Assembly: GCF_029227855.1 (NCBI RefSeq)
Contig: NZ_CP074356.1
DNA length: 64,000 bases
Origin: Escherichia coli
GTDB taxonomy: Bacteria > Pseudomonadota > Gammaproteobacteria > Enterobacterales > Enterobacteriaceae
Direction: 5' to 3' (one strand)
The notes under the pieces are model-generated. The model searched no databases. It saw only the letters and a program-made list of their open reading frames with translations, and was not told where the DNA came from. Of this stretch, positions 11,000 to 43,873 are shown piece by piece. Each line of letters opens with the position of its first letter. Position 1 is the first letter of the stretch. The position numbers were made by a program, and so were the translations under genes.

Positions 11000-11191
11000 T
11001 TAAAATCCTGCCGGGATTTCGTTATTATCCTGGTGAATAACTTTATCGACCGGATAACAGTTGCCTGGAATTTTCTGTTCGGTTGCTGCTGCCATACATT
11101 CCTGCATTGTTCTGTGAACACTGACTGCAATATCAACTGGCTCTCCGGAAACAAGAAAAACCGTCAGAATAAGTGCAAATACTGGATTCAT
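11000..11191 (-). CDS. ydfD: YdfD-like small secreted/lysis protein (63 aa)
   Basis: MNPVFALILTVFLVSGEPVD..., directly downstream of dicB as in Qin; start chosen at the internal ATG with hydrophobic N-terminus. Confidence 0.5.
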   Translation of the reverse strand: MNPVFALILTVFLVSGEPVDIAVSVHRTMQECMAAATEQKIPGNCYPVDKVIHQDNNEIPAGF

Positions 11192-11376
11192 TGTGCACAT
11201 CCTTTTGGCATCAGACGTAAACGGGCCAGCATTGAAACAATGCATACTTTATTTAATAACTCCCGTTCGTGTTTTCTTTTGTTAATGGCCTCTTCAGTAA
11301 ATACAGGATTACTGATAGTGACACCAATTTCAAAACAACCTTCAGACGTATTAACGTTTGGTAATAACGTTTTCAT
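11188..11376 (-). CDS. dicB: Cell-division inhibitor DicB (62 aa)
   Basis: MKTLLPNVNTSEGCFEIGVTISNPVFTEEAINKRK...LMPKGCAQ matches recalled Qin DicB; DicF lies just upstream. Confidence 0.7.
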   Translation of the reverse strand: MKTLLPNVNTSEGCFEIGVTISNPVFTEEAINKRKHERELLNKVCIVSMLARLRLMPKGCAQ

Positions 11377-12477: not shown

Positions 12478-12774
12478 GCTGACCTCATTTCCCCTTAACG
12501 CCGGGGTAGCGGAACAAAAACCTGCTGCATAGTTATTAAAGTTGAACCCTGCCGTCATGTTCTTACGCCTCGGGCTGGCTACTTAACCCCTGACCACTGC
12601 CTGGTAACTCGAAGTATTGCCCTGCATTCTGTGGGGCGGGGTGGGTGGTAGGTATATAATGTACTTTTCGTTCATTGTTGTAAAGTACTTTTAGTACATT
12701 TTGTGTGTAAAAAAATGAGATGGGATAAAGTGAAGCACAAACCCGGAGGAAGGCGCTACCGGATTTATGCTGGT

Positions 12775-13194
12775 TTAAGAGGCTTTTTGTTTTTTCTTTC
12801 GTGCTAACTCTTCGTAAATTGCATTGTACTTCTGTTTTTTCTCTTCAAGAGTTTTTAAAAGTTCATCTGTCTCACTGTCAGGGAGCTCGTCCAGAAGGTC
12901 AATGATGATTTTTTGTCTTGGATTTAACTCCTGATAGAAACGTACCTGTCCACTTTCTTCTGTATCCTCTCCCAAAAGATAGGTTGGTGTTGTTCCTATT
13001 AGTGTTGCTAATTCCCTTAATTTCTCCCGGCGAGGAATTGTTTCGCCATTAAACCATTTGCTAACCGCTTTTGGTGTTAATTTCATTCGACGGGCAATTT
13101 CTGCCTGCCTTCCATGTTGTTCATAACCAGCGTTTTCACAGGCTAGCGCAAGCCTACTGGCGAACTCTTTACGCGCTTTATCTTCATGAACCAT
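12775..13194 (-). CDS. Prophage repressor, HTH XRE family (DicA/RacR-like)
   Basis: 139 aa with N-terminal HTH (..QAEIARRMKLTPKAVSKWFNGETIP..); divergent from a Cro-like gene. Confidence 0.8.
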   Translation of the reverse strand: MVHEDKARKEFASRLALACENAGYEQHGRQAEIARRMKLTPKAVSKWFNGETIPRREKLRELATLIGTTPTYLLGEDTEESGQVRFYQELNPRQKIIIDLLDELPDSETDELLKTLEEKKQKYNAIYEELARKKKQKAS

Positions 13195-13273
13195 AAGTTC
13201 AATGATATTCGCTCTTGAATGTACTGTCAGTTCTGTTATAGCATGTACTCAAAGTTCACATTGTGAGGGTGAT

Positions 13274-13528
13274 ATGAACCAGAAAACACTTGAAGATGTA
13301 ATCAAAACTGTTCGCGTTGCTGTTGTGGCCGACGTTTGTGGTGTCAGCCAAAGAGCAATCTATAAATGGATGGATAACGGAAAATTGCCTCGCACAGAAT
13401 ATACCGGCGAAACAAATTACGCTGAAAAAATCGCTCTTGCATCAAACGGATTATTTTCTGCCGATGCAATTTTAACTATTGGCAGGAATAAAACTACTAC
13501 GAAAAAGCTGATGGGAGTTGATTCATGA
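13274..13528 (+). CDS. Cro/DicC-like small HTH regulator (84 aa)
   Basis: MNQKTLEDVIKTVRVAVVADVCGVSQRAIYKWMDNGKLP..; divergent from the repressor; start set at the ATG at 13274. Confidence 0.6.
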   Translation: MNQKTLEDVIKTVRVAVVADVCGVSQRAIYKWMDNGKLPRTEYTGETNYAEKIALASNGLFSADAILTIGRNKTTTKKLMGVDS

Positions 13529-13950
13529 AAATCAAGCATGAACACATCCGCATGGCGATGAATGCCTGGGCGCATCCGGACGGCGAAAAAGTACCGGCTG
13601 TGAAAATTACCAAAGCGTATTTCGAGCTGGGAATGACGTTCCCGGAACTGTATGACGACAGCCATCCGGAAGCCCTGGCTCGCAATACTCAGAAAATTTT
13701 CCGCTGGGTGGAGAAAGACACCCCTGATGCGGTTAAAAAAATTCAGGCGTTGTTACCAGCTATCGAAAAAGCAATGCCACCTCTGCTGGTGGCCCGAATG
13801 CGCAGTCATAGCTCAGCCTATTTTCGGGAACTAGTGGAGACGCGGGAACGACTGGTGAGAGACGCTGATGATTTTGTCGCAGTGGCGATCGCTGGTTTCA
13901 ACCAGATGAATCGTGGTGGCCCTGCAGGAAATATTGTGGCTGTGCATTGA
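13525..13950 (+). CDS. YdaT-like (CII-like) regulator, 141 aa
   Basis: Position after cro-like gene and before the replication gene, start overlapping the upstream stop; family assignment recalled from Rac ydaS-ydaT-ydaU organisation. Confidence 0.65.
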   Translation: MKIKHEHIRMAMNAWAHPDGEKVPAVKITKAYFELGMTFPELYDDSHPEALARNTQKIFRWVEKDTPDAVKKIQALLPAIEKAMPPLLVARMRSHSSAYFRELVETRERLVRDADDFVAVAIAGFNQMNRGGPAGNIVAVH

Positions 13951-14021
13951 CTCGCAATATTCATACCGGATCACTTCCGGCAATTTGTGAGTAAAAAGAT
14001 TCGGTATCAAAAGAGGTGAGT

Positions 14022-15104
14022 ATGGCTAACGCCTGGCTCAGATTATGGCATGACATGCCAAATGACCCTAAGTGGCGAACAATTGCCAGGGTGTCAGGGC
14101 AGCCAATTGCAACAGTGATGGCAGTGTATATCCACCTCCTGGTGAGCGCGTCACGAAATGTCACGCGAGGTCACATTGATGTCACGACAGAAGATTTGGC
14201 AAGTGCGCTCGACGTGACAGAAGAGGTAATTGATTCAATTTTGCAGACGATGCAGGGGCGGGTACTTGATGGTGATTTAATCACTGGATGGGAAAAACGC
14301 CAGGTGCTTAAAGAGGACAACGGCAATATTTCGCAAACCGCAAAATCTCCTGCAGAGCGCAAGAGGGCGCAGCGAGAGAGGGAAAGAAAGCGGGAACAAA
14401 ATGGCGATTGTCACGGCGCGTCACGAAATGTCACGCACATGTCACGACGAGTCACGACAGATAAAGATACAGATAAAGATACAGATAAAGATACAGATCA
14501 AGAAGATCAAAACACTATGGTCCATGGCGTAAAAAACGCCACGAACCAGGCAGGGGATGTTCAGACCGTCAATCTTGGTCAGCCAGCAGGCACGACACCG
14601 GAAGCCGATTCAGCGTATGCGCTGAAAGCCGATTCGGGCGCTGTGCAGCAGGTGATGACCGCAAGGCCGGAGCAATCACACCAACTGCAGCAGCCCGAAG
14701 CCGATTCCGCCATTCAGCGGGAAGCCGATCGGGTAGTCCCGGAAAACACCGGGCAGTCTGTGGGACGAGTGGATTATCCGGATGTGTTCGAACAGGTCTG
14801 GCGGGAGTACCCGTTGCGTGCCGGAGCAAACCCGAAGAAATCCGCTTTCAGTGCCTGGAAGGCCAGATTACGCGAGGGGGTGCCACCAGAGGCCATGCTG
14901 GATGGCGTGAGGCGTTACGCAAGATACTTGGCGGCTACCGGGAAAACGGGAACGGAATTTGTTCAGCGAGCGACGACGTTTTTTGGACCGGACCGGAATT
15001 TTGAGAACCCCTGGTTGCTCCCGGTAAGCGGCACGAACAACCAGCGTTGTGTGAATCATATTTCTGAACCGGATAACGAAATTCCGCCGGGCTTCAGGGG
15101 GTAA
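14022..15104 (+). CDS. Replication initiation protein (lambda O / YdaU-like) with internal origin-like repeats
   Basis: Long ORF after cro/ydaT-like genes; contains GTCACG iteron-like clusters and a DKDTDKDTDKDTD repeat; ATG at 14022 preferred over the upstream GTG because of AAGAGG RBS. Confidence 0.65.
   Translation: MANAWLRLWHDMPNDPKWRTIARVSGQPIATVMAVYIHLLVSASRNVTRGHIDVTTEDLASALDVTEEVIDSILQTMQGRVLDGDLITGWEKRQVLKEDNGNISQTAKSPAERKRAQRERERKREQNGDCHGASRNVTHMSRRVTTDKDTDKDTDKDTDQEDQNTMVHGVKNATNQAGDVQTVNLGQPAGTTPEADSAYALKADSGAVQQVMTARPEQSHQLQQPEADSAIQREADRVVPENTGQSVGRVDYPDVFEQVWREYPLRAGANPKKSAFSAWKARLREGVPPEAMLDGVRRYARYLAATGKTGTEFVQRATTFFGPDRNFENPWLLPVSGTNNQRCVNHISEPDNEIPPGFRG
14149..14500 (+). 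repeat. Putative replication origin: two clusters of ~10-bp-spaced GTCACG iterons plus (GATAAAGATACA)x3-4 tandem repeat, inside the initiator gene
   Basis: 14149..14190 and 14409..14460 carry 4-5 GTCACG copies at ~10-11 bp spacing; 14459..14500 has the 12-bp AT-rich repeat. Confidence 0.5.
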
Positions 15105-15144
15105 GTGTTAATTTCTGGTCATGAGGTAATTTTCAGGAGGGCTT

Positions 15145-15567
15145 GTGGCAAAAGTTTTTACACAAGAAGAGCGGGAAAAAATTAAAGGGCAGGTTGTTGA
15201 ACTCGTACGCCAGAGTGGGCGCGAGACGTTACGACAACTGGAAACTAAAACTGGGGCAACAAGATATCTGATGAGCGTTCTGGCCAGAGAGCTGGTTGCC
15301 AGTGGCGATGTATACAACTCTGGTTACGGGTTATTCCCGTCTGAACAGGCGCGTAAGGACTGGCAAAATGCCCGTAAAAAGCTCTCAAGGGCAAAGCCGA
15401 AGAAACCATCTGCGGTTGATCCGGACCTAATCTGGTCATTACCAGACGGAGAAATACGCCGCTACGACAGGCGCCTGAATATAATCTGTCGCGAGTGCCG
15501 GAAGAGCGAAGCTATGCAGCGTGTACTGGCTTTCTATCAGGGTAATTTTCAGGAGGCGGTACTGTGA
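15145..15567 (+). CDS. Hypothetical phage protein (140 aa)
   Basis: ORF with good spacing after the replication gene; no recognisable domain. Confidence 0.5.
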   Translation: MAKVFTQEEREKIKGQVVELVRQSGRETLRQLETKTGATRYLMSVLARELVASGDVYNSGYGLFPSEQARKDWQNARKKLSRAKPKKPSAVDPDLIWSLPDGEIRRYDRRLNIICRECRKSEAMQRVLAFYQGNFQEAVL

Positions 15568-15981
15568 GTGAAATTAGCTATCAGGCTTCAATTGCCGCTG
15601 GCATTCGCATCAAAGGAGAGGAGCATGGAAATAAAACCAGAGGATTAGTTAAGCAATATCGTTTTATTTCCGATAAAAGAGGATGACCCTCGTAATCAGG
15701 TTAATTTTCTTTATGAGCCATCGGAAAGACCATATTGCCATCACGCTTCTGTCCGGGTTGACGAAAAAGAGCGTCAGGTCCGCTGTAAAATCTGCGGTGC
15801 AGTTGTGGAGCCATTTGACTGGATGCTCTCTGTGGCGAAAAGAGAAACCAGACTGGCAGATGATGTAAGGCTCTTGCGCCAGGAGGAACGGGAAAGGCGA
15901 AAAAATATAGAAAAGCTAATTCAGATTGAGCGTAACGGGAAAGCGCGGATACGCAGGGTGACAAAATCCAAAACTGAATAA
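15564..15981 (+). pseudogene. Frameshifted gene: 40-codon frame (VSEISYQ...) followed in +1 frame by a start-less Cys/His-rich ORF (..RPYCHHASVRVDEKERQVRCKICGAV..)
   Basis: GTG at 15564 overlaps upstream stop with AGGAGG RBS; frame ends at TGA 15684..15686 inside an A-run (GATAAAAGAGGATGA); downstream frame open to 15981 without any start codon. Confidence 0.3.
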
Positions 15982-32499: not shown

Positions 32500-32775
32500 A
32501 TGTCGATGTACACAACCGCCCAGCTGCTGGCGGCAAATGAGCAGAAATTTAAGTTTGATCCGCTGTTTCTGCGTCTCTTTTTCCGTGAGAGCTATCCCTT
32601 CACCACGGAGAAAGTCTATCTCTCACAAATTCCGGGGCTGGTAAACATGGCGCTGTACGTTTCGCCGATTGTTTCCGGTGAGGTTATCCGCTCCCGTGGC
32701 GGCTCCACCTCTGAATTTACGCCGGGATATGTCAAGCCGAAGCACTTAGCATGGCTTTCTGAGGCTTTCGTGTAG
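32500..32775 (+). pseudogene. E: Major capsid protein E, 5' fragment (codons 1-82) disrupted by insertion
   Basis: MSMYTTAQLLAANEQKFKFDPLFLRLFFRESYPF...EFTPGYVKPKH matches lambda gpE, then reads into foreign sequence (LAWLSEAFV, stop at 32775). Confidence 0.85.
32735..32744 (+). repeat. Left copy of 10-bp direct repeat AGCCGAAGCA (putative att core of the inserted element)
   Basis: Identical 10-mer at 43864..43873 exactly where E homology resumes. Confidence 0.6.
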
Positions 32776-32907
32776 CTGCTGGTTTTTACACTTAATCTTT
32801 TGATAATAAAGAATAAGTTTATCTGGCGCTTTCACTGAATTTTCCTCGTTATCTGTGTGTTGCAATCATCTCTGTATTGCAGCTTGTATTGCTTTTTGGG
32901 GCTAAAA

Positions 32908-34143
32908 ATGGCTGGCGAGAACAAACTGAGCGACAAAGCGCTTAAAGGATATCTGGGGAAACCCAGAGAAAAGCAGATCACCATTGCTGATGGAAAGGGG
33001 CTTTCTATTCGTGTGAGTACTAAAGGGGCTGTGAGCTTTGTTTTCTTCTACAGGTTAGCAGGTGGCCGGGCTGCTCCGGTCTGGCTAACGTTGGGTAAAT
33101 ATCCTGATATGTCACTCAAACAGGCAAGGGAAAAGCGCGACGAGTGCCGTGGTTGGTTGGCTGACAAACGTGATCCGCGTATCCAGATTAAGATTCAGGC
33201 TGAAGAACGCTTAAAGCCGGTCACAGTGGAGGATGCACTAAATTACTGGTATGAAAATTACTGTAAGGTGCGTCGTAAAACTCATGCTGTAACGCTTGGC
33301 AGATTTCGAAAGCATATCTTTCCCTATATCGGTCATTTGCCCGTAAATGACACTCACCTATATGAATAGCTGGACTGTTTTGACCGAATTAAACGTAATG
33401 CACCAGTTATGGCGGCGTATGTTTTTTCTGACACTAAATTAGCTCTTCGTTTTTGTCGGGTACGCCAGTACGCGACGTGTGATGCTTTAAAGGATTTGCG
33501 CATGAGTGATGTGGGGCAGATTGCAGGTAAGCGGGATCGGGTTCTGGATGAGGTCGAACTCGGCCAGCTCTGGAAGGCAATTTTTGTCGAGCCTGATTTA
33601 AAACTAATGTCTGAATACACGCGAAAAATGTTTGTGCTTTGTACAGTATTTGGATGTCGAATGAGTGAAGCCCGATTATCAGAATGGAGCGAATGGGATC
33701 TCGAAAGTTGGGTTTGGACTGTGCCAAAAGATCACTCAAAAACTGGTGTTGAAATCGTCAGACCAGTACCTGAAATTCTACGACAGTGGGTAACGGATGT
33801 TCACGAAGAGACAAAACATACTGGTTATGTGCTGGGAAGTCTGCGAATTAGAGAAAGCGTAAGCAAGATTGGGGGGAAAATCGGTAAACGTTTGGGCCAT
33901 GAAAAACAATGGTCACTACACGACCTTAGAAGAACGCTATCTACTCATCTAAGTGATCTCGGTGTTGAATTTTATGTAGTAGAACAACTGTTAGGCCATG
34001 CGCTACCTGGCGTGGCAGGTGTTTACAACCGGAGTAAGTTTATGGCTAAAAAACTGGATGCTCTGGAACTCTGGACTACATATCTCAATAGCATCGCAGC
34101 TGCTGATTCAAAAGTGACAATCCTCAAACAAAAGGCTGGTTAG
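32908..34143 (+). pseudogene. int: P4-type tyrosine integrase interrupted by an in-frame amber codon (TAG at 33367..33369)
   Basis: Track ORFs 32857..33369 and 33409..34143 are in the same frame; P4-int-like N-terminus (..KGLSIRVSTKGAVSFVFFYR..GKYPDMSLKQAREKRDE..); TAG sits where homologues have Trp. Confidence 0.8.
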
Positions 34144-34144
34144 C

Positions 34145-34375
34145 ATGAAAAAAATGGCAATTGTTGATAAAAAGGGTCTGGAGTACATTCCTAACATTGA
34201 CCGAATGATCCGTGAGAAAGAATGTCGGGAGCTAACTACTCTTGCGAACAGCACACGCTGGAAGCTGGAGAAGGAAGGAAAATTTCCTAAGCGGATCAAG
34301 ATTGGTTCCACTGCTGTTGCATATCGTCTTTCAGAAGTGCAGGCATGGATTCGAGGTGAGTGGGAAACAACTTAA
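34145..34375 (+). CDS. alpA: AlpA-family transcriptional regulator / excisionase-like protein
   Basis: 76 aa, HTH (..CRELTTLANSTRWKLEKEGKFPKRIKIGSTAVAYRLSEVQAWI..) directly after int. Confidence 0.75.
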   Translation: MKKMAIVDKKGLEYIPNIDRMIREKECRELTTLANSTRWKLEKEGKFPKRIKIGSTAVAYRLSEVQAWIRGEWETT

Positions 34376-34382
34376 CTATTAG

Positions 34383-35213
34383 GTGGGCATTGTGGCTATA
34401 TTTCATTATACAGATCTTTTTGGTTTGAAAGGTATATTAGACTCTAATTCTTTATGGGCTACAAACATATATTTCTTAAATGATAAAGAGGAGTCTAACC
34501 ATGGATGTGAATGCTTTCGAAATACAATTAAAATAGTTGATGACAATATCATTCCAAAAGATAAGAAAACTATTTTGCTCAAGTCTCTTGACATGTATGA
34601 GAAAGGGAGGTTACAAAAAGAAAAAGGGATTGATAAACATGTTTATAGCATCTCTTTTTGTAAGGAAAACGATAAGTTAAGTCAGTGGAGAGGTTACGGA
34701 AATAAACAGGGTGTTTGCATTGAGTTTGATGCGGATGAACTTGTGAGCTTTTCTCAAAATATTTATTTAAATTGTGTTGCACATGATGTTATATATTCAA
34801 ATAATAACGATATTACTAAGATGAGTAAGGAGTTGGGAGAGTTTTTTTCTTGTAATGGTATTAATATTAAAGAAATGAATGATCATTTTGTAACAATGGT
34901 CTCTACGTATCAATTTATATCTAAATACATCCCATTTTTTAAACATCCTAGTTTTATCGAAGAGAATGAATTTAGATTGGTATTTACTCCGTGGATGCAA
35001 ATGCCAGATGTGCACTTCAGAATAAATAATAATGGGATCATCCCTTATATCATCATTGATAATAAAGATAATAGAAAGTTACCAATTAAAAGCATTACAA
35101 TTGGCCCGACAAACGATTATGATTTCATTGAGGCTGGTATAAAAATGTTCTTGGATTCAAGAGGATTTAGTTCTGTGGAAATTAAATCCTCATCAATTCC
35201 ATTCAGGGGGTAA
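34383..35213 (+). CDS. DUF2971-like protein (276 aa), AT-rich cargo gene
   Basis: N-terminal IFHYTDLFGLKGILDSNSLWATNIYFLNDKEE resembles the DUF2971 signature; very low GC; start could be GTG 34383 or GTG 34391. Confidence 0.6.
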   Translation: MGIVAIFHYTDLFGLKGILDSNSLWATNIYFLNDKEESNHGCECFRNTIKIVDDNIIPKDKKTILLKSLDMYEKGRLQKEKGIDKHVYSISFCKENDKLSQWRGYGNKQGVCIEFDADELVSFSQNIYLNCVAHDVIYSNNNDITKMSKELGEFFSCNGINIKEMNDHFVTMVSTYQFISKYIPFFKHPSFIEENEFRLVFTPWMQMPDVHFRINNNGIIPYIIIDNKDNRKLPIKSITIGPTNDYDFIEAGIKMFLDSRGFSSVEIKSSSIPFRG

Positions 35214-35258
35214 GGATTAACACTTTTAATCTATGATATTATAAAAATGGTGGATAAA

Positions 35259-35278
35259 GGCGACCAGAATTGGTCGCC
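35259..35278. terminator. Bidirectional hairpin between convergent cargo genes
   Basis: AGGCGACCAGAATTGGTCGCC perfect inverted repeat. Confidence 0.4.
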
Positions 35279-35344
35279 AATGTGAGTATATAGTTAGCCT
35301 TAATCAGAATACGAGGTTATCGCCTGATAGGCAATGTGAACAGT

Positions 35345-35701
35345 TCAATATTTAGGTGGTTCAACAAGAGCGTTTATCATTGCTCTCAAATTATCGCGAA
35401 CACTTATCCAAGTCTGTTCTGCTCGTTCTAACTCATCAGTGTACAACTTTAATGTTTTATCTATGCCATATGTGGCTATTAAATTTATAGCTTCTTGTAA
35501 TTTTTCAGGATTATTCCTTCTTGGGGGAGTGAATATACCACGGATTTTTCCGGTAATTAAAGCTTTACGGTGTCTACATAGAATACCTTTACTTCCTGCT
35601 GGACAATTACAAGTCATGATTAGCGAGCCAGAATCGTTTGATACAGTGACTATGTATACATCCAAACTACTGCTACTTGTTGCGAAGAATTCGTATTTCA
35701 T
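35345..35701 (-). CDS. Small SWIM-type zinc-finger protein (118 aa)
   Basis: CNCPAGSKGILCRH (CxC..CxH) motif; AT-rich. Confidence 0.55.
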   Translation of the reverse strand: MKYEFFATSSSSLDVYIVTVSNDSGSLIMTCNCPAGSKGILCRHRKALITGKIRGIFTPPRRNNPEKLQEAINLIATYGIDKTLKLYTDELERAEQTWISVRDNLRAMINALVEPPKY

Positions 35702-35728
35702 GTGTTAGCTCCTTGACTTCAATTATTC

Positions 35729-35860
35729 TTATCCTTTTGGTTCAATACCGCGCCGTAGCAGCTCTTTGCGCCCTAATTCTTTAAGCCAGTTGGCTAGGCT
35801 TATGCCGTCGCTCTGCGCTTCTTTGTCGAATTGCTCTTTTAGCTCTGGAGAAATTCGCAT
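35729..35860 (-). CDS. Small ribbon-helix-helix-like protein (43 aa; longer in-frame form to 36043 possible)
   Basis: MRISPELKEQFDKEAQSDGISLANWLKELGRKELLRRGIEPKG; immediately upstream of the SWIM gene on the same strand. Confidence 0.45.
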   Translation of the reverse strand: MRISPELKEQFDKEAQSDGISLANWLKELGRKELLRRGIEPKG

Positions 35861-36059
35861 TCTGAATTGTGGAGATTGCCCATCACCCTTAGGACTTTTA
35901 TCGCGTTTGATCGTTGACAAGTGACCACCTATTGAATTAGCCTTTTCATTGTTAGGTGACCACCTTAACACGGGGGCACTTAAAAAAGCAAAGCCCGAAG
36001 GTGCTGGGAACACCAACGGGCTTCTAACCACCAACGATAGCAACAGTATCGAGGTAGCT

Positions 36060-36263
36060 ATGAGAAATCATACCACACACCCGCAAGGGCGGGACCCGCA
36101 CAACCTGAATAAATACATCTGGCGTTTTATCGCCTTGAGTACGGCACAACCGCGCATGATTACCATCGAGGCCATCAGCGAACAGGAAGCCCGCCAGCAA
36201 TCCCCAACTGGCTGCGTGATGGTATTCGCCGCCCGTATTCGTCAGGAGGTGTGCCGTGCTTAA
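36060..36263 (+). CDS. Small hypothetical satellite protein (67 aa)
   Basis: ATG with GAGG RBS; first of five tightly coupled small genes preceding the primase. Confidence 0.4.
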   Translation: MRNHTTHPQGRDPHNLNKYIWRFIALSTAQPRMITIEAISEQEARQQSPTGCVMVFAARIRQEVCRA

Positions 36264-36441
36264 AACCTTCCGTGTATTTGCCCGAGCTGTTAACCCACTG
36301 GGCCACACAATTGGTATCACTCAGAACGTGAAGGCTGTTAATGTTCAGACGGCTATTGCTGCGGTGAGAAGCGAATCATCAGAATATGGCTTATCACAAG
36401 TCATTATTTCAGCAGTGTATGAATTAAAAGAGGTGCATTAA
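36256..36441 (+). CDS. Small hypothetical satellite protein (61 aa)
   Basis: Track ORF, overlaps neighbours by a few nt. Confidence 0.4.
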   Translation: MLKTFRVFARAVNPLGHTIGITQNVKAVNVQTAIAAVRSESSEYGLSQVIISAVYELKEVH

Positions 36442-36632
36442 TGCAGGAAATCACATTACACGAAGCCGCTGAACGTGCGCACCAGACAGAAATTATTTGC
36501 CGCCTTCTTGAGGTATACCCGAACAAAATTACAGATGCTGATATATCCGCGCTGGCGAGCCTACTGGCGCGCCTTTCGGGAAGTGTCGCTAGTTTCCTGA
36601 TTGAGGAAGAAAGTAAGCTGGTGGGGGATTAA
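36441..36632 (+). CDS. Small hypothetical satellite protein (63 aa)
   Basis: Track ORF, start overlaps upstream stop. Confidence 0.4.
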   Translation: MQEITLHEAAERAHQTEIICRLLEVYPNKITDADISALASLLARLSGSVASFLIEEESKLVGD

Positions 36633-36854
36633 ATGAATACAGAACGGGAAGTCTTTTTTAAATTGTTAGCATGTGCAGAAAGTTCATTAACTTTAAATAA
36701 TTCAGCAAAAGCAATATTAAATATGTGGCTTGATTGCATAAATGACAATGAAGATGCAAATATTGCTTATGGCCTGTTGTCACTTATTGATGAATCAGCA
36801 GAAAAACTCAATGACGCAATAAATAGTGCCCTGCTATCAAATAAGTCGAGTTAA
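36633..36854 (+). CDS. Small hypothetical satellite protein (73 aa)
   Basis: Track ORF. Confidence 0.4.
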   Translation: MNTEREVFFKLLACAESSLTLNNSAKAILNMWLDCINDNEDANIAYGLLSLIDESAEKLNDAINSALLSNKSS

Positions 36855-36871
36855 GTCGAGGAATAAATAAT

Positions 36872-37171
36872 ATGGAAATGAAAAATTCTGGCTTTATTGC
36901 CAGCGGCCCCGCTCGGCCTGAATTTATGAACGGCGATATTTACCGCGATAAATACGGCGGCACGGTAACGATTAAAGGCGTGGCAGAACGGCGCATCACT
37001 TACCGCCGTGAGGGGTATAGCTATGACTGCGTGATGCCTGTTTATCAGTTCCGGCGTGATTTTTCCCTGGTATATGCCGCACCCCGCAGTAAGCCCATCA
37101 GCAGGGAAAAAGCGCGGGGAAACATCCAGAAAATGAAAAGCATGATTAACGCATTCAGGGGCAAAAAATGA
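36872..37171 (+). CDS. Small hypothetical satellite protein (99 aa)
   Basis: Track ORF, stop overlaps primase start. Confidence 0.45.
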   Translation: MEMKNSGFIASGPARPEFMNGDIYRDKYGGTVTIKGVAERRITYRREGYSYDCVMPVYQFRRDFSLVYAAPRSKPISREKARGNIQKMKSMINAFRGKK

Positions 37172-38919
37172 AACTGGCACCGAACTTAAAAAAACAGCCA
37201 CGCGACAGACTGACAGAGGTAATCATCTTTGCAGGTAGTGATGCGTGGAGCCATGCGAAAGAGTGGCGGGAATGGGCGGGTAAACATATTGCCGCCGACG
37301 ATGTGCCGCCTGTCGTGCTGGCTGATGAGCAACTGAAAAATATCACCGATTACCGGATCATTGATGAAGATCGTCAGTGTGTGCGTGTTTACCGCGCAGG
37401 ACATATCACAGAGCACAGCATGACGCAGATTGTTACGTTACTGGCTGTGGCTGGAGTGAAGACCGTACACGAATACGCGGGGATTACTGACACCAGCCCA
37501 GTGGATTTATCCGAGCAGTTGCCGCGACTCAAAGAGGAATGCGAGCGTGGGGAAAGTCTGGTGCTTAATCTTCCGACGAAGCAAAAGGCGCAACTTTCAC
37601 AGATGGCAGACAGTGAACGTGCACAACTACTTGCCGATCGCTTTGATGGTGTGTGTGTTCATGCAGAAAGTGAAATCGTCCACGTATGGCGCGGCGGGGT
37701 ATGGTGTCCGGTCAGCACAATGGAGCTGAGCCGCGAAATGGTGGCGATCTATTCAGAGCACAGGGCCACGTTCAGCAAACGTGTAATCAATAACGCCGTG
37801 GAAGCGTTAAAAGTTATTGCCGACCCCATGGGGGAGCCGTCCGGTGATTTGCTACCGTTCACTAATGGTGTGCTTAACCTGAAAACGGGGGAATTTTCTC
37901 CGCACTCGCCGGAGCACTGGAGCACCACGCACAATGGCATTGAGTACACGCCACCAGTAGCAGGGGAAAACATCCGCGATAATGCGCCAAATTTCCATAA
38001 ATGGCTTGAACATGCTGCAAGAAAAGACCCGCGCAAGATGATGCGTATATGTGCCGCGTTATACATGATTATGGCGAACCGCTACGACTGGCAGATGTTC
38101 ATTGAGGCCACCGGAGACGGGGGAAGCGGTAAGAGTACATTTACCCATATTGCCACCCTGCTTGCTGGCAAACAGAACACCGTAAGCGCGGAGATGACAT
38201 CACTCGATGATGCAGGAGGGCGCGCGCAGGTTGTCGGGAGTCGTCTTATCGTCCTTGCCGATCAGCCGAAATATACGGGGGAAGGCACGGGCATCAAGAA
38301 AATCACGGGAGGCGATCCCGTTGAAATTAACCCGAAATATGAGAAGCGATTCACGACGATAATAAGGGCGGTGGTACTGGCAACCAATAACGACCCGATG
38401 ATCTTTACCGAACGGGCCGGAGGTGTGTCACGCCGTCGGGTGATTTTCCGGTTCGACAACATTGTAAGGGAGGACGAAAAAGACAAGGAATTACCGGAAA
38501 AGATAGCGGCAGAAATCCCCGTAATTATCCGCCGCTTGCTGGCTAATTTTGCTGACCCTGAAAAGGCACGGGCTTTATTACTGGAACAGCGTGACGGTGA
38601 TGAAGCTCTGGCAATAAAGCAGCAAACGGATCCGGTTGTTGAGCTTTGCGCGGCGCTGGAGTTTCTGGAGGAAGCTCGTGGGCTAATGATGGGCGGTGGT
38701 GGTGACACCGTGAAGTACACGACCAGAAACAGCCTTTACCGTGTCTATATGGCCTTCATGGCATACACAGGAAAGGGGAAATGTTTGAGCGTGAATGAGT
38801 TCGGAAAGGCTATGAGGTCAGCGGCGAAAGTTTACGGATATGAATATATTACGCGAAAAGTTAAGGGAGTCACGCAGACCAACGCAACGACTACTGATGA
38901 TTGCGATGCGTTTTTATAA
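37168..38919 (+). CDS. Primase/replicase (P4 alpha / D5-type), 583 aa
   Basis: Walker A GDGGSGKST in the C-terminal half; large N-terminal domain; followed by iterons. Confidence 0.8.
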   Translation: MKLAPNLKKQPRDRLTEVIIFAGSDAWSHAKEWREWAGKHIAADDVPPVVLADEQLKNITDYRIIDEDRQCVRVYRAGHITEHSMTQIVTLLAVAGVKTVHEYAGITDTSPVDLSEQLPRLKEECERGESLVLNLPTKQKAQLSQMADSERAQLLADRFDGVCVHAESEIVHVWRGGVWCPVSTMELSREMVAIYSEHRATFSKRVINNAVEALKVIADPMGEPSGDLLPFTNGVLNLKTGEFSPHSPEHWSTTHNGIEYTPPVAGENIRDNAPNFHKWLEHAARKDPRKMMRICAALYMIMANRYDWQMFIEATGDGGSGKSTFTHIATLLAGKQNTVSAEMTSLDDAGGRAQVVGSRLIVLADQPKYTGEGTGIKKITGGDPVEINPKYEKRFTTIIRAVVLATNNDPMIFTERAGGVSRRRVIFRFDNIVREDEKDKELPEKIAAEIPVIIRRLLANFADPEKARALLLEQRDGDEALAIKQQTDPVVELCAALEFLEEARGLMMGGGGDTVKYTTRNSLYRVYMAFMAYTGKGKCLSVNEFGKAMRSAAKVYGYEYITRKVKGVTQTNATTTDDCDAFL

Positions 38920-38935
38920 AAAATGGCAATGGTTA

Positions 38936-39170
38936 TCTACCTTGTCTACCTGACTGAAAGAAAATACTTTTATTTCAATGTATTAATGCAGGTAGATAAC
39001 TATTTTTCACTGTCTACCTGTTATCTACCTTATCTACCCATTTTTGTAGACAGGTAAGGAGACGGGTAGAGATGAGGTAGACAGCTATTTGGGGCTGTCT
39101 ACCTCCCTGAAACCCGCGCCATTACTGGCCTGATAACTAATCAGGTAGACAAGGTAGACAAGGTGGTGGT
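38936..39170. repeat. Iteron array (putative satellite replication origin)
   Basis: About 12 copies of (A/G)TCTACC / GGTAGA(C/T) in both orientations within ~235 bp. Confidence 0.7.
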
Positions 39171-39208
39171 GCACAAAAAACTTTTTAAACGAGGGGGTAA
39201 AAATAAAA

Positions 39209-39466
39209 ATGCACACTTCAGGAAAACTGAACAAACATATAAAGCCACATTACCGCGCCCTTGATATGGCTGAACACTGGCTAAGGGTGGCGATTAAGGC
39301 AATAGACCGCAACGCCGGGGAAGGATACGCGAAAGCACATCCCGAACTGATAAGCGCATTCATGACAACGGCGGCTGCAAACTTTGCCACGCTGACCGAA
39401 CGGGAGATTGCTGAAGCGGAGGAAGTGACAACAATCAATATTAAGTCCGGAGAGCAGGCAGCATGA
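39209..39466 (+). CDS. Hypothetical satellite protein (85 aa)
   Basis: Track ORF, translationally coupled to the SSB gene. Confidence 0.45.
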   Translation: MHTSGKLNKHIKPHYRALDMAEHWLRVAIKAIDRNAGEGYAKAHPELISAFMTTAAANFATLTEREIAEAEEVTTINIKSGEQAA

Positions 39467-39912
39467 CGGCGCAAATATCAGTTTACGGGCGGTTGGTGGA
39501 CGACCCGCAGACAAAACAGACCAGCAAGGGCACCCCCATGACGCTGGCGCGTATGGCGGTATCACTGCCCTGCAGTCAGTCGGATGACGGTCTGGCGACG
39601 TTGTGGTTATCTGTCCTGGCGTTTGGCAGACAAGCCGACGCGCTGGCAAAGCATCACAAAGGCGAACTCCTGAGCGTGGCGGGTAACATGCAGATGAGCC
39701 AGTGGACTGGACAGAACGGCGAAACGCGGCAGGGCTGGCAGGTTATCGCAGACAGCGTAATCAGTGCGCGATCGGTGCGACCGGGCGGCAAAAAAGGCCA
39801 ACAGGGGCAGGCTACTGACGCACTGAACAGAGCAAAACAACAGGCAGATCAGCAAGGAAGCCAGCCACCAGAGGGAGATAATGAGCAATGGGGAGATGAT
39901 ATCCCGTTTTAA
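39463..39912 (+). CDS. ssb: Single-stranded DNA-binding protein
   Basis: OB-fold-like N-terminus, Gly/Gln-rich linker and acidic C-terminal tail ending DDIPF. Confidence 0.8.
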   Translation: MTAQISVYGRLVDDPQTKQTSKGTPMTLARMAVSLPCSQSDDGLATLWLSVLAFGRQADALAKHHKGELLSVAGNMQMSQWTGQNGETRQGWQVIADSVISARSVRPGGKKGQQGQATDALNRAKQQADQQGSQPPEGDNEQWGDDIPF

Positions 39913-40128
39913 ATATTGCCAATAAAAAAAGCCGGAAAAAATAAATTTTCCGGCATGCTACATAAATCCCGACCAAAGGGAGTGAAGATATTAACACTAA
40001 TTGTCCGCACTGAAGTTGTCACACCAAAACTTTATACAACATTGCACTCGGTTGCATGTGTTCGCATGACAAATATCGGTGATAGCATATATCCACAATT
40101 ATTTTTAATGAATGCAAAGAGGATGCGT

Positions 40129-41169
40129 ATGGTTGATTTATATTCGCCTACTCAGCTTGTACAGGTAGTTAATGCTGTAGATGTACAAAAACAACTAAAT
40201 GCGTTGTTTACCAGTTTGTTTTTTACTCGCTCGGTAATGTTTGAATCGCGCGATATTATTCTTGATACAATCGACGATCCAAATATCCCAATTGCAGCGT
40301 TTTGTTCTCCTATGGTGGGTAGTAAAGTTTCACGTGACGAAGGGTACGAATCAAAAACAATTCGTCCAGGCTATATGAAGCCGAAAAGCAGCATTGATCC
40401 AAATAAGTTAGCTGTGCGCCCTGCTGGTGTGTCACCTGAGCAATACAATGCTTTTGGGGCGCGTAATATTAAAGTTAAACAGGCGATTGTAAATCAGGCT
40501 AAAGCTATTCGTGCACGTATTGAATGGCTTGCTGTTCAGGCAATCACAACGGGGAAAAATATCATTGAGGGCGATGGTATTGAACGTTATGAGCTGGACT
40601 GGAATATAAAACCACAAAATATCATCACTCAGTCTGGCGGTACTGAGTGGTCAGGTAAGGATAAAGAAACTTTTGATCCAAATGATGATATTGAGAGCTA
40701 CGCAGAATTTAGTGAGGGCGTCACTAATATCATCATTATGGGTGGTAATGTATGGAAGAAATACCGTTCATTCAGAGCGATAAAAGAGGCTTTGGATACC
40801 CGTCGTGGTTCTAATTCCGAACTGGAAACGGCCCTTAAAGACCTTGGTGATTCGGTGAGTTTTAAAGGGTATATGGGCGATGTTGCGATTGTTGTTTACA
40901 GCGGGCGTTATACCGACGAGGACGGAACAGAAAAACATTTCCTTGATCCTGATTTGATGGTGCTTGGCAATACGGCTCTTCAGGGGATTGTCGCCTATGG
41001 CGGTATTCAGGATCCGGAGCTAATCCGAATGGGGCTGACTAAAGCCGAACTTGCACCGAAAAACTATATTGTGCCTGGTGATCCGGCTATTGAATATGTG
41101 CAGACACATTCAGCACCACAGCCAATACCGGCCCGCATCAATCGTTTTGTTACCGTTCGCATTGGCTAA
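40129..41169 (+). CDS. Satellite-encoded major capsid protein, lambda gpE family (346 aa)
   Basis: Collinear similarity to gpE (ITQSGGTEWSGKDKETFDPNDDIESYA..., ..LDTRRGSNSELETALKDLG..GDVAIVVYSGRY..MVLGNT..); start set at MVDLYSPTQ with AGGA RBS. Confidence 0.8.
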   Translation: MVDLYSPTQLVQVVNAVDVQKQLNALFTSLFFTRSVMFESRDIILDTIDDPNIPIAAFCSPMVGSKVSRDEGYESKTIRPGYMKPKSSIDPNKLAVRPAGVSPEQYNAFGARNIKVKQAIVNQAKAIRARIEWLAVQAITTGKNIIEGDGIERYELDWNIKPQNIITQSGGTEWSGKDKETFDPNDDIESYAEFSEGVTNIIIMGGNVWKKYRSFRAIKEALDTRRGSNSELETALKDLGDSVSFKGYMGDVAIVVYSGRYTDEDGTEKHFLDPDLMVLGNTALQGIVAYGGIQDPELIRMGLTKAELAPKNYIVPGDPAIEYVQTHSAPQPIPARINRFVTVRIG

Positions 41170-41178
41170 GGGGGAGCA

Positions 41179-41520
41179 ATGGCTACTCATTACACTGAAC
41201 TCATGGCTGGCACTGAAGCACTGGTGACTACGCTGGGGATATTTTCAGCTAATAAAGGGGTAATTCCTGCATTTACGCCACTGATGCAGGAAGATGCAAC
41301 AGGTGCACTGGTGGTATGGGATGGTTCGAGCGTAGGTAAAGCGGTTTATGTTTCCGCTGTACAAATCGACACCGCGAAAAAAACACAGGCTCAGGTCTAT
41401 AAGACAGGTGTCTTAAATGTTGATGCTCTGAACTGGCCTGAGTCTGTTAAAGAACTGTCAGTAAAGGTTGCAGCGTTTGTTGGCTCAGGTATTTCTGTTC
41501 AGCCGCTGGCTCGTGTGTAA
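41179..41520 (+). CDS. Satellite-encoded head decoration protein, lambda gpD-like (113 aa)
   Basis: Shares THY, TPLM, LVVWDG, YKTG, WPE, AF.G..IS motifs with gpD at matching positions. Confidence 0.7.
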   Translation: MATHYTELMAGTEALVTTLGIFSANKGVIPAFTPLMQEDATGALVVWDGSSVGKAVYVSAVQIDTAKKTQAQVYKTGVLNVDALNWPESVKELSVKVAAFVGSGISVQPLARV

Positions 41521-41531
41521 AGGGGGATACA

Positions 41532-41915
41532 ATGCAGAATGATTACAATGACCTTAAGCCAATTGCCGAAATGATGTACCCGAATCAAGCTGTAGAGGAA
41601 TTAAAAGCTATCGCTGACAAAATGTGTTTAAGCGAGCGCCTTGTTGATATGAATCAGGTGATGGAAATTACAACCCTGAGTCGTCGTACACTGCTAAACC
41701 TTGAGGCTAGTGGAGAGTTCCCGGAGCGTGTGCAGGTTACGGAAGGGCGTAAGGCCTGGTATTTAAGTGAAGTGATCGACTGGATAAATAATATTCCTCG
41801 CGCTTCTGAATATTGCCGCGTACCTGTCCCAAAAAAGCCAGATGCGGCGCTATGCCTCAAGATTGAGCGTGTACGCCGCAATGCACGGGATGGTCGCTAT
41901 AAGCTGATTGGTTGA
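41532..41915 (+). CDS. AlpA/MerR-like winged-HTH protein immediately upstream of the satellite cos
   Basis: 127 aa with HTH (..MNQVMEITTLSRRTLLNLEASGEFPERVQVTEGRKAWYLSEVIDWINN..). Confidence 0.6.
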   Translation: MQNDYNDLKPIAEMMYPNQAVEELKAIADKMCLSERLVDMNQVMEITTLSRRTLLNLEASGEFPERVQVTEGRKAWYLSEVIDWINNIPRASEYCRVPVPKKPDAALCLKIERVRRNARDGRYKLIG

Positions 41916-41939
41916 TGAAATTAGGACCCGCTCTGGCTG

Positions 41940-42145
41940 GCGGGTCCTTTCCGGCGATCCAGAACGTTACGGGGCGTCAGGCGCGCAGTTTTTCGCTATT
42001 TGTGAAAATTTTCCTGTTTAAGGCGTTTCCGTTCTTCTTCGCCGTAACTTAATGTTTTTATTAAAAACACCCCCTAAAAAGAAAGGAAACGACAGGTGCT
42101 AAAAACAGGCTTTTTGGCCTCTGTCGTTTCCTTTCTCTGGTTTTG
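41940..42145 (+). other. Second cos site, belonging to the satellite: altered cohesive-end sequence (GGGCGTCAGGCG at 41972..41983) with lambda-type cosB elements
   Basis: GGGTCCTTTCCGGCGATCC..GTTACG|GGGCGTCAGGCG|CGCAGTTTTTCGCTATTTGTGAAAATTTTCCTGTTTAAGGCGTTTCCGTTCTTCTTCG..GAAAGGAAACGACAGGTG..TCTGTCGTTTCCTTTCTC tracks lambda cos closely. Confidence 0.75.
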
Positions 42146-42481
42146 TTGCCATCCGTCGCGGTCTATCACCAGAAAAAATCTTATCCCTGAGTTGAATCAG
42201 GCCCTATTCAGAAGCGGCCAATAACGCGCCGCTAGCTTCACTTCATAGTTATGGCCTACTTCTGCGCCATTGCAATTGCTTTATGCGCCTTGATGGTGGA
42301 ATATAGAGCAAGCAGTTTGCGAATAACAAAGTTTCATATGTTTTTTGCTGTGTGGCTAGACAACTTTACAGCAGAGTTTTGTGTCAGTTCTTTATGTGTG
42401 CAAGCAAGCTTGAGGGGGAATTACTTCTGGCTGTATCTTTGCTTAAGAACAGCAATAATTTAATCATAAGGAAATGTATAT

Positions 42482-42504
42482 AAGCCTGATTAAATTTCAG
42501 GCTT
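42482..42504 (-). terminator. Hairpin terminator after the TIR gene
   Basis: AAGCCTGA-TTAAATT-TCAGGCTT just 3' of the stop. Confidence 0.4.
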
Positions 42505-42513
42505 ATTGAAATG

Positions 42514-43656
42514 TTAACTCCTTATTAGAGAGTAAATTCCATCCTCTTTAAGGAAGTCTATTACTTCAAAGAATGAGATAAAGAATTCCCAAGAACCAAA
42601 AGCATATGCATGAATTTCGTAAGGTGCAAAATGGAATCTAAATCCATCACTATTTATTGTGAACGAGTCTAAGTTACTATCCATGATACCCGTTGCAAAC
42701 GTACTAATGTCGTCCTCACTTGGTTTTTCACCAGTTTTCTCCCAAAATTCACGAGCTGATTCAGAGATTATTTTTTGTTTTATCTTATTAATCGCTTCTT
42801 GCTCTTTCCCTTCGGTAAATACATCCCATAAACTAAATTTGTATGCGTAGTCATCCTTGGTTATTACGAAATTACTAGTTTCAAAATGACTGTTAGGGTG
42901 TGCTGCTCCCGCACCATACCAATGTACGGAATGAAGGATGCTCATGACATTTTCGTTACAGTATGAGATGTTATAACTTTCATTATAGGAACTAGTGTAA
43001 GTGTGTTTATATTCTTCATCCCAATATGGTGTTCCTGGCCATAGTGATGTGCGTTCAGAAAAAATATGTAAAGCCGCTTTTCCTGAAAAGTAATCACTAA
43101 TGAGTTTTGCTGATTTCGGTAATGTATGGCTTTCAATTCTTGGATATGCTATTTCAATTTCATGCCCTGGGATCTTGTTATATTCTTCCTTGAAAACCTC
43201 GCTGCTAAAGTTAAATGGCCCATAAGTGATACCTTGAGATATTTCAAGTTTTTGTTGCGATGCTGCTAATCTTAAAGATCTAGATAAAATGTCCCAACCA
43301 TCATTTCTCTTAAAATCAATGAATTGGAGCTTGCTTGATATGTAGGCGGGTACTTCGCAATCATCAATAAGTAATGGTATCACGAACACATCATCTGGTT
43401 TGTAATACTTTAGTTTATCAATGGCGTCATTTATTTCGCGGCGAATATAACCATTTTTCTGAGTGCTCACTTTGCTAAGGATAAGGATTATCAAGTTTGA
43501 ATTAGCGAAGTTTTTTTGGATTTCATAATCCCAGTTTACGCCAGCGGGTATATCTTTTACATCCATCCAAGGGGAATATCCTCCACTTTTTAGCCTTTCA
43601 TAGATTTCTTCAGTTATCGTTTCATCTTCTTTTGCATGAGCAAGAAAAATTTTCAT
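42514..43656 (-). CDS. TIR-domain protein with ~250-aa C-terminal domain of unknown function (380 aa); candidate anti-phage defence gene
   Basis: N-terminus MKIFLAHAKEDE...SNLIILILSKVS..YIRREINDAIDK..VIPLLIDD fits the bacterial TIR pattern; AAGGA RBS; AT-rich; between satellite cos and right att repeat. Confidence 0.75.
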   Translation of the reverse strand: MKIFLAHAKEDETITEEIYERLKSGGYSPWMDVKDIPAGVNWDYEIQKNFANSNLIILILSKVSTQKNGYIRREINDAIDKLKYYKPDDVFVIPLLIDDCEVPAYISSKLQFIDFKRNDGWDILSRSLRLAASQQKLEISQGITYGPFNFSSEVFKEEYNKIPGHEIEIAYPRIESHTLPKSAKLISDYFSGKAALHIFSERTSLWPGTPYWDEEYKHTYTSSYNESYNISYCNENVMSILHSVHWYGAGAAHPNSHFETSNFVITKDDYAYKFSLWDVFTEGKEQEAINKIKQKIISESAREFWEKTGEKPSEDDISTFATGIMDSNLDSFTINSDGFRFHFAPYEIHAYAFGSWEFFISFFEVIDFLKEDGIYSLIRS

Positions 43657-43863
43657 TGAATATTCCTTTATAATTTAACTAATTAAGTGAAGGAGGCTTT
43701 ACTTGGCTGTGTTAGAAAAAATTCGGTTTGTTTTTTGTACGATGCCAAGAAGGCTTTTCCCTAACCATGTATTGCAGCATGTATTGCTACGTAATTCTGC
43801 ACCCTCTCATTTATAAAATAAATCTCTGTTAAATCAAGTATCTTTTTTCTATTTGACTCATGT

Positions 43864-43873
43864 AGCCGAAGCA
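43864..43873 (+). repeat. Right copy of 10-bp direct repeat AGCCGAAGCA
   Basis: Identical to 32735..32744; E reading frame resumes immediately after. Confidence 0.6.

Follow-up and report, generated by a model that had tools for sequence, protein, structure and literature searches.

Two phage replication origins that lie inside a protein-coding gene are the closest described counterparts of the site reported here. Ori-lambda consists of four 18-bp iterons and a 38-bp AT-rich stretch inside O, the iterons measuring 18-19 bp and having internal inverted symmetry and short spacers (PMC3349717, PMC7466680), and oriL of phage SPP1 combines AB boxes with an AT-rich unwinding element inside gene 38 (PMC5737612). 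We analysed a 64,000-nt stretch of Escherichia coli DNA (NZ_CP074356.1, assembly GCF_029227855.1; hereafter the window, with 1-based coordinates within it) that contains a lambdoid prophage, and examined two arrays of short direct repeats and an AT-rich tandem repeat within the gene for the prophage's replication initiator. We consider this site a probable theta-type replication origin located inside the gene of its own initiator. It is very probably an ordinary kind of element, an intragenic phage origin, in a family in which none has been described before.

Iteron arrays and AT-rich tract within the initiator gene

The original prediction, made from the letters of the sequence, had marked two clusters of GTCACG motifs at ~10-bp spacing and an AT-rich 12-bp tandem in three to four copies, together spanning 14149-14500 inside an initiator open reading frame. 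All of this held up on closer measurement, with the AT-rich stretch continuing slightly further, to ~14522, and every element falling within 14016/14022-15104 on the + strand. The features of the locus are as follows.

14022..15104, + strand: replication initiator ('replisome organizer') gene, 360 amino acids (aa) (open reading frame; PHROG 3729; RefSeq annotation of relatives)
14150..14186, + strand: iteron cluster 1, four head-to-tail units (GTCACG, GTCACG, GTCACA, GTCACG) (exact motif positions, conserved offsets)
14213..14218, − strand: lone inverted iteron copy, GTGAC on the + strand, within D-V-T (offset ~192 in most class-A homologues, defined below)
14410..14456, + strand: iteron cluster 2, five head-to-tail GTCACG units (motif positions, Tandem Repeats Finder)
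14457..14503, + strand: AT-rich tandem ACAGATAAAGAT, proposed DNA-unwinding element (Tandem Repeats Finder, duplex stability, conservation)
14518..14548, no strand assigned: imperfect inverted repeat TGGTCCATGGCGTAAAAAACGCCACGAACCA, possible auxiliary element (terminator-like match on the − strand; weak evidence)

The 360-aa product matches PHROG 3729, 'replication initiation protein', over its full length (E = 4e-256), and its C-terminal two-thirds also match PHROG 1701, 'DnaD-like helicase loader'. Searches against Pfam and NCBIfam returned no family above its threshold, and RefSeq names close relatives either 'phage replisome organizer' or 'hypothetical protein'. Translation may start at ATG 14022, with AGAGGTGA just before it; GTG 14016 is in frame, too.

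Within cluster 1, GTCACG cores lie at 14150, 14160 and 14181 and the GTCACA variant at 14170 (spacing 10, 10, 11); within cluster 2, the cores lie at 14410, 14420, 14430, 14441 and 14451 (spacing 10, 10, 11, 10), which Tandem Repeats Finder reports as a repeat of period 10 and 5.0 copies at 14409-14459. The iterons thus take the form of 10-11-bp head-to-tail units, each comprising a 6-bp core and a variable 4-5 bp, without dyad symmetry. Because this period is no multiple of 3, one and the same hexamer is translated in all three frames, into V-T, S-R and C/G-H. Cluster 1 accordingly codes for aa 43-55 as A-SR-N-VT-R-GH-ID-VT, and cluster 2 for aa 130-145 as CH-GA-SR-N-VT-HM-SR-R-VT.

The arrays are not expected by chance. 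GTCACG occurs 42 times in the window as compared to 26.5 +/- 5.1 times in shuffled sequences, and nine copies fall within 307 bp where 0.13 would be expected (Poisson P ~2e-14; ~4e-12 when corrected for position). At least three GTCAC/GTGAC within 45 bp are found at just these two places in the 64 kb. Two minus-strand open reading frames overlying the array region (14171-14362 and 14277-14414) found no support.

Directly after the last cluster 2 unit follows the ACAGATAAAGAT tandem (period 12, 3.9 copies, 97% matches by Tandem Repeats Finder), whose top strand comprises 27 A, 8 G, 7 T and 5 C. It is translated in frame into T-DKDT-DKDT-DKDT-DQEDQ (aa 146-161), and so contains (DKDT)3. Calculated duplex stability identifies the tract as the least stable 40-bp window both of 12700-15700 and of the gene (−43.5 versus a mean of −56.4 kcal/mol), ranking it in the top 1.2% weakest of the 64-kb window. 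GATC (Dam) sites are located at 14496 and 14505, at the right edge of the tract, with the gene's one other site at 14727.

The inverted repeat TGGTCCATGGCGTAAAAAACGCCACGAACCA lies 15 bp to the right of the AT tract and has a DNA fold of −8.7 kcal/mol (z = −2.3). Many homologues carry GC-rich inverted repeats right of the tract (e.g. CGCGCACGTGCGCG, CCCCCGCCAGCGGGGG), often coding for PPxPPRG. In a crude test over 34 loci, however, the best perfect inverted repeat after the tract did not surpass the controls overall (median control fraction 0.32), and a paper on ori-lambda makes no mention of a palindrome beside that origin.

With respect to ori-lambda, which the locus had originally been said to mirror, the likeness is one of design and not of homology: the iterons are different, and the initiator is no relative of lambda O, yielding no match to Phage_rep_O at E values up to 10. 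In both systems, the (here, predicted) origin resides in the initiator gene and in part codes for an inter-domain linker, and that gene lies downstream of cro/cII-like genes. Likewise, the presumptive array of initiator sites is followed, along the direction of transcription, by a candidate AT-rich unwinding tract, and the putative sites number at least four (five in cluster 2; four plus the inverted one in cluster 1). As in lambdoid O genes, the N-half and origin make up a specificity module, while the C-half is exchangeable and matched to its helicase-delivery partner. Unlike at ori-lambda, the units are 10-11 bp long and head-to-tail, with a 6-bp core in place of dyad symmetry, and are grouped into two arrays separated by 230-260 bp, of which one lies within the coding region of the DNA-binding domain. 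The prophage gene that follows is DUF977 rather than P, whereas alleles with another C-half have 'replication protein P'.

The resemblance to SPP1 oriL lies in repeated boxes and an adjoining AT-rich element within an organizer gene. It may extend to the SPP1 protein G38P, in that the N-domain of the prophage initiator gives a sub-threshold, full-length match to the G38P-type family Phage_rep_org_N (PF09681 / TIGR01714; E = 0.009, 16.4 bits versus a cut-off of 23.3, model positions 1-119 of 121) and has a DnaD-like predicted fold. Unlike SPP1, the prophages have Gram-negative hosts, and in the window we found neither genes equivalent to the G39P/G40P loader and helicase nor a second copy of the origin.

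Plasmid iterons are ~17-22 bp long, intergenic and usually accompanied by DnaA boxes. The prophage shares with iteron plasmids (pPS10, RK2, R6K) a winged-helix initiator, direct repeats and an adjacent AT-rich unwinding element, but its units are 10-11 bp long and intragenic, with no DnaA box beside them. Bacillus DnaD is a host adaptor at oriC and not an origin-specific phage initiator; the prophage protein has no significant sequence similarity to it. The iterons described in a Pf-5 paper belong to an unrelated island.

Conservation, specificity classes and modularity

A homologue scan with one genome per species returned 36 loci. Twenty-two of them, which we term class A, have GTCAC(G) at gene offsets ~128, 138, 148 and 159 and again at ~388, 398, 408 onward. 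These 22 genes stem from gamma- and beta-proteobacteria (hosts including E. coli, Serratia, Rahnella, Morganella, Pseudomonas, Bordetella and Chromobacterium) and share 45-96% amino-acid identity. At 42-67% identity, homologues (from Pseudomonas, Achromobacter, Chromobacterium and others) still retain ASRNVTRGHxxVT and, within an otherwise unalignable linker, CHxxSRxVT then DKDKDK or DTDTDT.

Codons overlapping the iteron cores are nearly invariant in class A: TCA in 21/21 genes, GTC in 22/22, ACG in 22/22, GGT in 21/21, CAC in 21/21, a further GTC in 22/22, ACG in 21/22 and, in the inverted copy, GTG in 19/20 (V65). As controls served 36 conserved residues outside the cores with at least three synonymous codons, for which the major-codon fraction averages 0.42; V32, for example, is encoded by GTG in 8, GTC in 5, GTT in 5 and GTA in 4 cases. 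Codon fixation differed between the 8 core residues and the 36 controls with a Mann-Whitney p = 6e-6. At R49, whose third base falls in a spacer, that base is free to vary, and among E. coli alleles the cores are invariant and the spacers differ. Some E. coli relatives have two extra cluster 1 units in the form of a 21-bp in-frame insertion, whose tolerance fits with cluster 1 coding for a surface loop at which the predicted local distance difference test score (pLDDT) of the structure model dips.

The AT tract shows a similar pattern. Immediately after the last iteron, nearly every locus of any iteron class has (C/A)(C/T)AGATAAAGATAAAGA... or something close to it, and all class-A loci have three to six units bordering directly on the AT tract. 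Over the 18 codons after the last iteron, the ratio of GAT to GAC is 105:6, as opposed to 154:159 in the N-domains of the same genes (p = 7e-20), and that of AAA to AAG is 92:17, as opposed to 98:108 (p = 7e-11), the hosts in this comparison having 47-69% GC. Judging by this codon usage, the (GATAAA)n tract is kept despite GC-rich hosts, with AT-rich codons being chosen there. Its copy number differs between near-identical prophages (3.9 or 2.9 units). Taken at the level of codons, then, the arrays and the tract are evidently selected as DNA, independently of the encoded protein.

GTCACG is absent from a second group, class B, made up of 8 genome loci and one viral contig (Methylibium, Variovorax, Collimonas, Rhodoferax and metagenome-assembled genomes (MAGs)). 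Here, CGAACG(C) takes its place at offsets 130, 140 and 150 and at ~361-392, giving the peptides SNATERGRT and PNATERxRT, and the core codons are fixed likewise. In Ralstonia phage Firinga (38% identity), the motif is GCAACG, located at 129, 139, 150 and 160 and at 400-430. By motif, these loci fall into three predicted specificity classes (GTCACG, CGAACG, GCAACG), to all of which the two positions and the period are common. A hexamer that changes by subfamily while position and period stay constant is the pattern expected of initiator/iteron pairs; neither a peptide repeat nor a host-factor site would explain such a switch at fixed architecture.

Systematic differences between class A and class B proteins are few, lying in the iteron-encoded loop, in aa 101-109 and at residue 117 of the basic helix (aa 110-130). 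While this comparison made it tempting to view the loop (aa 44-55) as the reading head for iterons, we dropped the idea because divergent initiators with GTCACG arrays in their linker lack that loop sequence.

The gene is modular around the tract. Across complete E. coli genomes, positions 1-464 of the gene have matches independent of those to positions 494-1087, and in alignments with other E. coli alleles homology ends inside the tandem. The AT tract would thereby form a recombination joint between an origin-specific N-module and interchangeable helicase-recruiting C-modules. The N-module and its arrays are met in four arrangements: with the C-domain described here and no loader gene (window); with a PF17948 DnaT-like domain, then 'replication protein P'; with a DnaB gene in phage Firinga; and with a primase-helicase gene in Pseudomonas phage P7869. 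In E. coli this initiator allele is common: of 5426 complete genomes, 1646 contain at least 80% of the gene and 2693 contain some part of it. Related genes are also found in phages and prophages whose hosts include Pseudomonas, Serratia, Bordetella and Ralstonia.

We also searched from the motif rather than the gene. Scanning IMG/VR viral contigs for GTCACG-N4-GTCACG-N4-GTCAC yielded at least 120 loci. Among the matches listed, 66 of 121 occurrences fall in this N-domain family, many of them as same-strand pairs 260-306 bp apart, corresponding to the two-cluster spacing. Five other occurrences among the matches listed were examined; four of these map to linkers of proteins in other PHROG replication families (PHROG 3729 distant, 2509, 2149/1408 and 10469), where purine- and AT-rich repeats again follow the arrays. 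As the scan lands mostly in initiator genes, the motif array itself predicts such genes.

Several individual loci deserve mention. In many database proteins (P0020, P0024, P0025, P0046 and others), the N-domain is joined to a +1-frame reading of the iterons and tandem (window 14401-14532), giving ...MAIVTARHEMSRTCHDESRQIKIQIKIQIKKIKTLWSMA; variants with a frameshift within or close to the repeats seem to be common among E. coli prophages, and these fusions may represent decayed genes or assembly errors. Loci L032, L033, L035 and L036 are four contigs of one beta-proteobacterial MAG, with an NAGNAEERGH-variant N-domain and without the (GATAAA)n tract. In Pantoea sp. BAV 3049 (L028, 3001-4100), a GIY-YIG-like segment, SYYVYFVVLRSNYDCYVGIS, occupies the linker at the expected origin site, flanked by periodic repeats of its own (CTACG/CGTAG) and a DTDTDTD tract; from its sequence, this insert may be a homing endonuclease inside the origin. 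Two MAGs labelled Collinsella sp. (L003 and L037) contain the E. coli prophage gene at 96-100% identity in Actinobacteria bins, most likely as a result of binning contamination.

Initiator protein, proposed mechanism and competing explanations

To relate the arrays to the protein, we used an AlphaFold2 model built with a 61-sequence alignment, which delineates the following regions.

14031..14306, + strand: N-terminal winged-helix domain, aa 4-95, confident (AlphaFold2)
14349..14411, + strand: basic helix, aa 110-130, AERKRAQRERERKREQ, ending at the start of cluster 2 (AlphaFold2)
14769..15026, + strand: C-terminal helical domain, aa 250-335, confident; proposed helicase-recruiting module (AlphaFold2)
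15030..15101, + strand: flexible C-terminal tail GTNNQRCVNHISEPDNEIPPGFRG, DnaT-tail-like (matches to DnaT chains)

Aa 131-250 form a linker that is disordered in the model and whose start is encoded by cluster 2. Together, cluster 2 and the AT tract code for aa 130-161, the beginning of a segment with pLDDT <50 between the confident N- and C-domains, whereas the coding region of cluster 1 corresponds to the end of helix 3 and the loop of aa 46-55, where pLDDT dips. The modelled N-domain has a winged-helix fold similar to that of the DnaD N-terminal domain. A Foldseek search of the full model against the PDB gave nothing at E <= 0.001, returning weak winged-helix regulators alone.

The C-terminal tail, ISEPDNEIPPGFRG, resembles that of the host protein DnaT (SEPDxxIPPGFRG), with 15 of the last 24 residues being identical. 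It matches DnaT chains 6aep (E = 0.003), 2ru8 and 9zbt, and aligns to positions 156-179 of 179 in the NCBIfam DnaT model NF002770 (19 bits versus a cut-off of 201); by this model, the initiator is unrelated to DnaT outside its last 24 residues. In related alleles, the C-terminal half contains the DnaT domain of Pfam, PF17948. A 2026 preprimosome paper does not describe a role for the extreme C-terminus of DnaT. A YdfD/DUF1482 open reading frame of the same prophage (11000-11245, − strand) ends in DNNEIPAGF, resembling the initiator tail; by this resemblance, the two prophage proteins may carry the same host-docking peptide.

That the repeats mark a likely replication origin, the central proposal of the original prediction, is supported by codon fixation, by conserved position and period, by the switching of the hexamer between subfamilies, and by the weak, conserved AT tract. 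In the mechanism we propose, prophage induction would trigger rightward early transcription and hence production of the initiator. Its winged-helix N-domain would occupy the iterons with a protomer at each helical turn, all on the same face of the DNA, giving rise to a compact nucleoprotein complex on cluster 2 that may be bridged to cluster 1 ~230 bp upstream. Strain from this complex would melt the adjacent AT tract, upon which the C-terminal DnaD-like domain and the DnaT-like tail would recruit the host's helicase-loading machinery. We infer the latter step because the prophage encodes no loader. A more specific version, which we regard as doubtful, is that the origin fires without a loader by DnaT mimicry: the tail ISEPDNEIPPGFRG, or in sister alleles a whole DnaT-like single-stranded-DNA-binding domain, would link the melted (GATAAA)n tract to PriA-PriB-DnaT/DnaB-DnaC. 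If true, this would be a sequence-specific origin that initiates via the replication-restart pathway.

Several observations weigh against an origin read by this initiator. No DnaA box lies in or beside the arrays, the sole perfect TTWTNCACA being at 15156, 650 bp off, and from sequence either cluster could be the essential one. Proteins sharing identical iterons lack a conserved sequence in the usual recognition helix (aa 67-77), which differs little between classes A and B, and GTCACG arrays also accompany quite divergent initiators. The four MAG contigs L032, L033, L035 and L036 and a Microcystis phage homologue have no detectable periodic motif. Finally, we found no publication describing this origin in the literature on phage replisome organizers, iterons, DnaT-like phage proteins and oriJ/Rac; papers on Eru replication types of Stx phages contain nothing on origins or iterons.

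Among the competing explanations, the strongest takes the arrays as sites of the initiator or another protein for autoregulation, copy control or an intragenic roadblock, with the true origin elsewhere. Plasmid iterons indeed double as control sites, the nearest AT-rich tract is 230 bp away from cluster 1 and the inverted copy, and intragenic binding would obstruct the gene's own transcription. Yet the conserved AT tract with its least stable duplex is in every case found right beside cluster 2, as in the classic layout of an origin, the 64 kb contain no further iteron cluster, and both experimentally mapped precedents of this layout are origins (PMC3349717, PMC5737612). Since control and origin roles are also compatible, we judge this explanation unlikely.

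Alternatively, the arrays might be read by a protein other than the initiator, be it a host factor or the product of a neighbouring gene (YdaT/CII-like, DUF977). This would accommodate both the variable recognition helix among proteins sharing GTCACG and the arrays found with divergent initiators, but the neighbours differ at loci with the same iterons (other repressors in E. coli; unrelated upstream genes in P7869 and Firinga), the arrays travel with the N-module in recombinants, and classes A and B are both present in Burkholderiales, which argues against a host factor; such a reader is very improbable. Least credible is that the repeats merely serve the protein, as a loop peptide motif and a slippage-expanded acidic/basic DKDT linker with no cis function: although the tandem codes for (DKDT)n of varying copy number within a disordered linker, and residues such as SRNVT and RGH do not vary among homologues, the 10-11-bp period places one DNA motif in three frames, synonymous codons are fixed over the cores alone, the tract uses AT-rich codons against host GC content, and other subfamilies hold position and period while encoding different residues (NATERGRT, TATQGNADAT), so that, judged by the codon tests, this explanation is already contradicted.

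Reading the site as an intragenic replication origin has several implications. Databases call the gene 'hypothetical' or 'replisome organizer' and annotate no origin. A simple sequence rule (hexamer arrays of 10-11-bp period at offsets ~130 and ~390, the second then followed by (GATAAA)n) would allow origins and their incompatibility or specificity classes to be read from genomes, and would guide the building of prophage-derived replicons. An origin at the DNA level would explain why odd peptides such as SRNVT, CHDESR and DKDKDK are conserved in a disordered linker, and would provide a clean natural case in which a site acting in cis constrains a protein through all three reading frames. Unusually, the site is dual-coding in all three frames, so that a change in iteron specificity (GTCACG, CGAACG, GCAACG) necessarily rewrites a surface loop of the initiator's DNA-binding domain. 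One origin module combined with four helicase-recruitment solutions, the DnaT-like tail included, would also offer a testable route to helicase capture without a loader.

Genomic setting of the prophage

The initiator of this lambdoid prophage is surrounded by the following genes.

12775..13194, − strand: cI-like helix-turn-helix (HTH) repressor gene of the immunity region, divergent, upstream of the initiator (Pfam HTH_3, E = 2e-9; annotation of relatives)
13274..13528, + strand: Cro-like HTH gene (Pfam HTH_17; annotation of relatives)
13525..13950, + strand: YdaT/CII-like gene, immediately upstream of the initiator (Pfam YdaT_toxin; PHROG 163 'CII-like transcriptional activator'; annotation of relatives)
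15145..15567, + strand: DUF977/Ren-like gene, directly downstream of the initiator (Pfam DUF977, E = 2e-29; PHROG 142; gene order in relatives)

With the Cro-like and YdaT/CII-like genes upstream in the same orientation, rightward early transcription would run into the proposed origin. Pfam and PHROG annotation of the window revealed no lambda-P-like, DnaC-like or DnaB-like gene after the initiator in this prophage. The prophage is integrated at a site adjoining tRNA-Ser/mtfA, and a relative that is 98-99.5% identical across the aligning parts possesses the complete complement of genes for head, tail and lysis.

An 11.3-kb island (32560-43864) interrupts the prophage between the head-decoration and major-capsid genes, a place taken by IS66 in a close relative. 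The original prediction had spoken of a likely helper replication origin, and this island probably accounts for the word 'helper'; a helper role of the prophage is hypothetical. The island is devoid of GTCAC clusters and contains just scattered single copies of GTCACG. It encodes a split tyrosine integrase (32857-33369 and 33409-34143), a D5_N/DUF5906 primase-helicase (37168-38919), a Phage_cap_E capsid homologue (39916-41169) and, on the − strand, a TIR+DUF3298 protein (42514-43656), along with DUF2971, SSB and AlpA. With this gene content, it looks like a phage satellite or PICI-like element.

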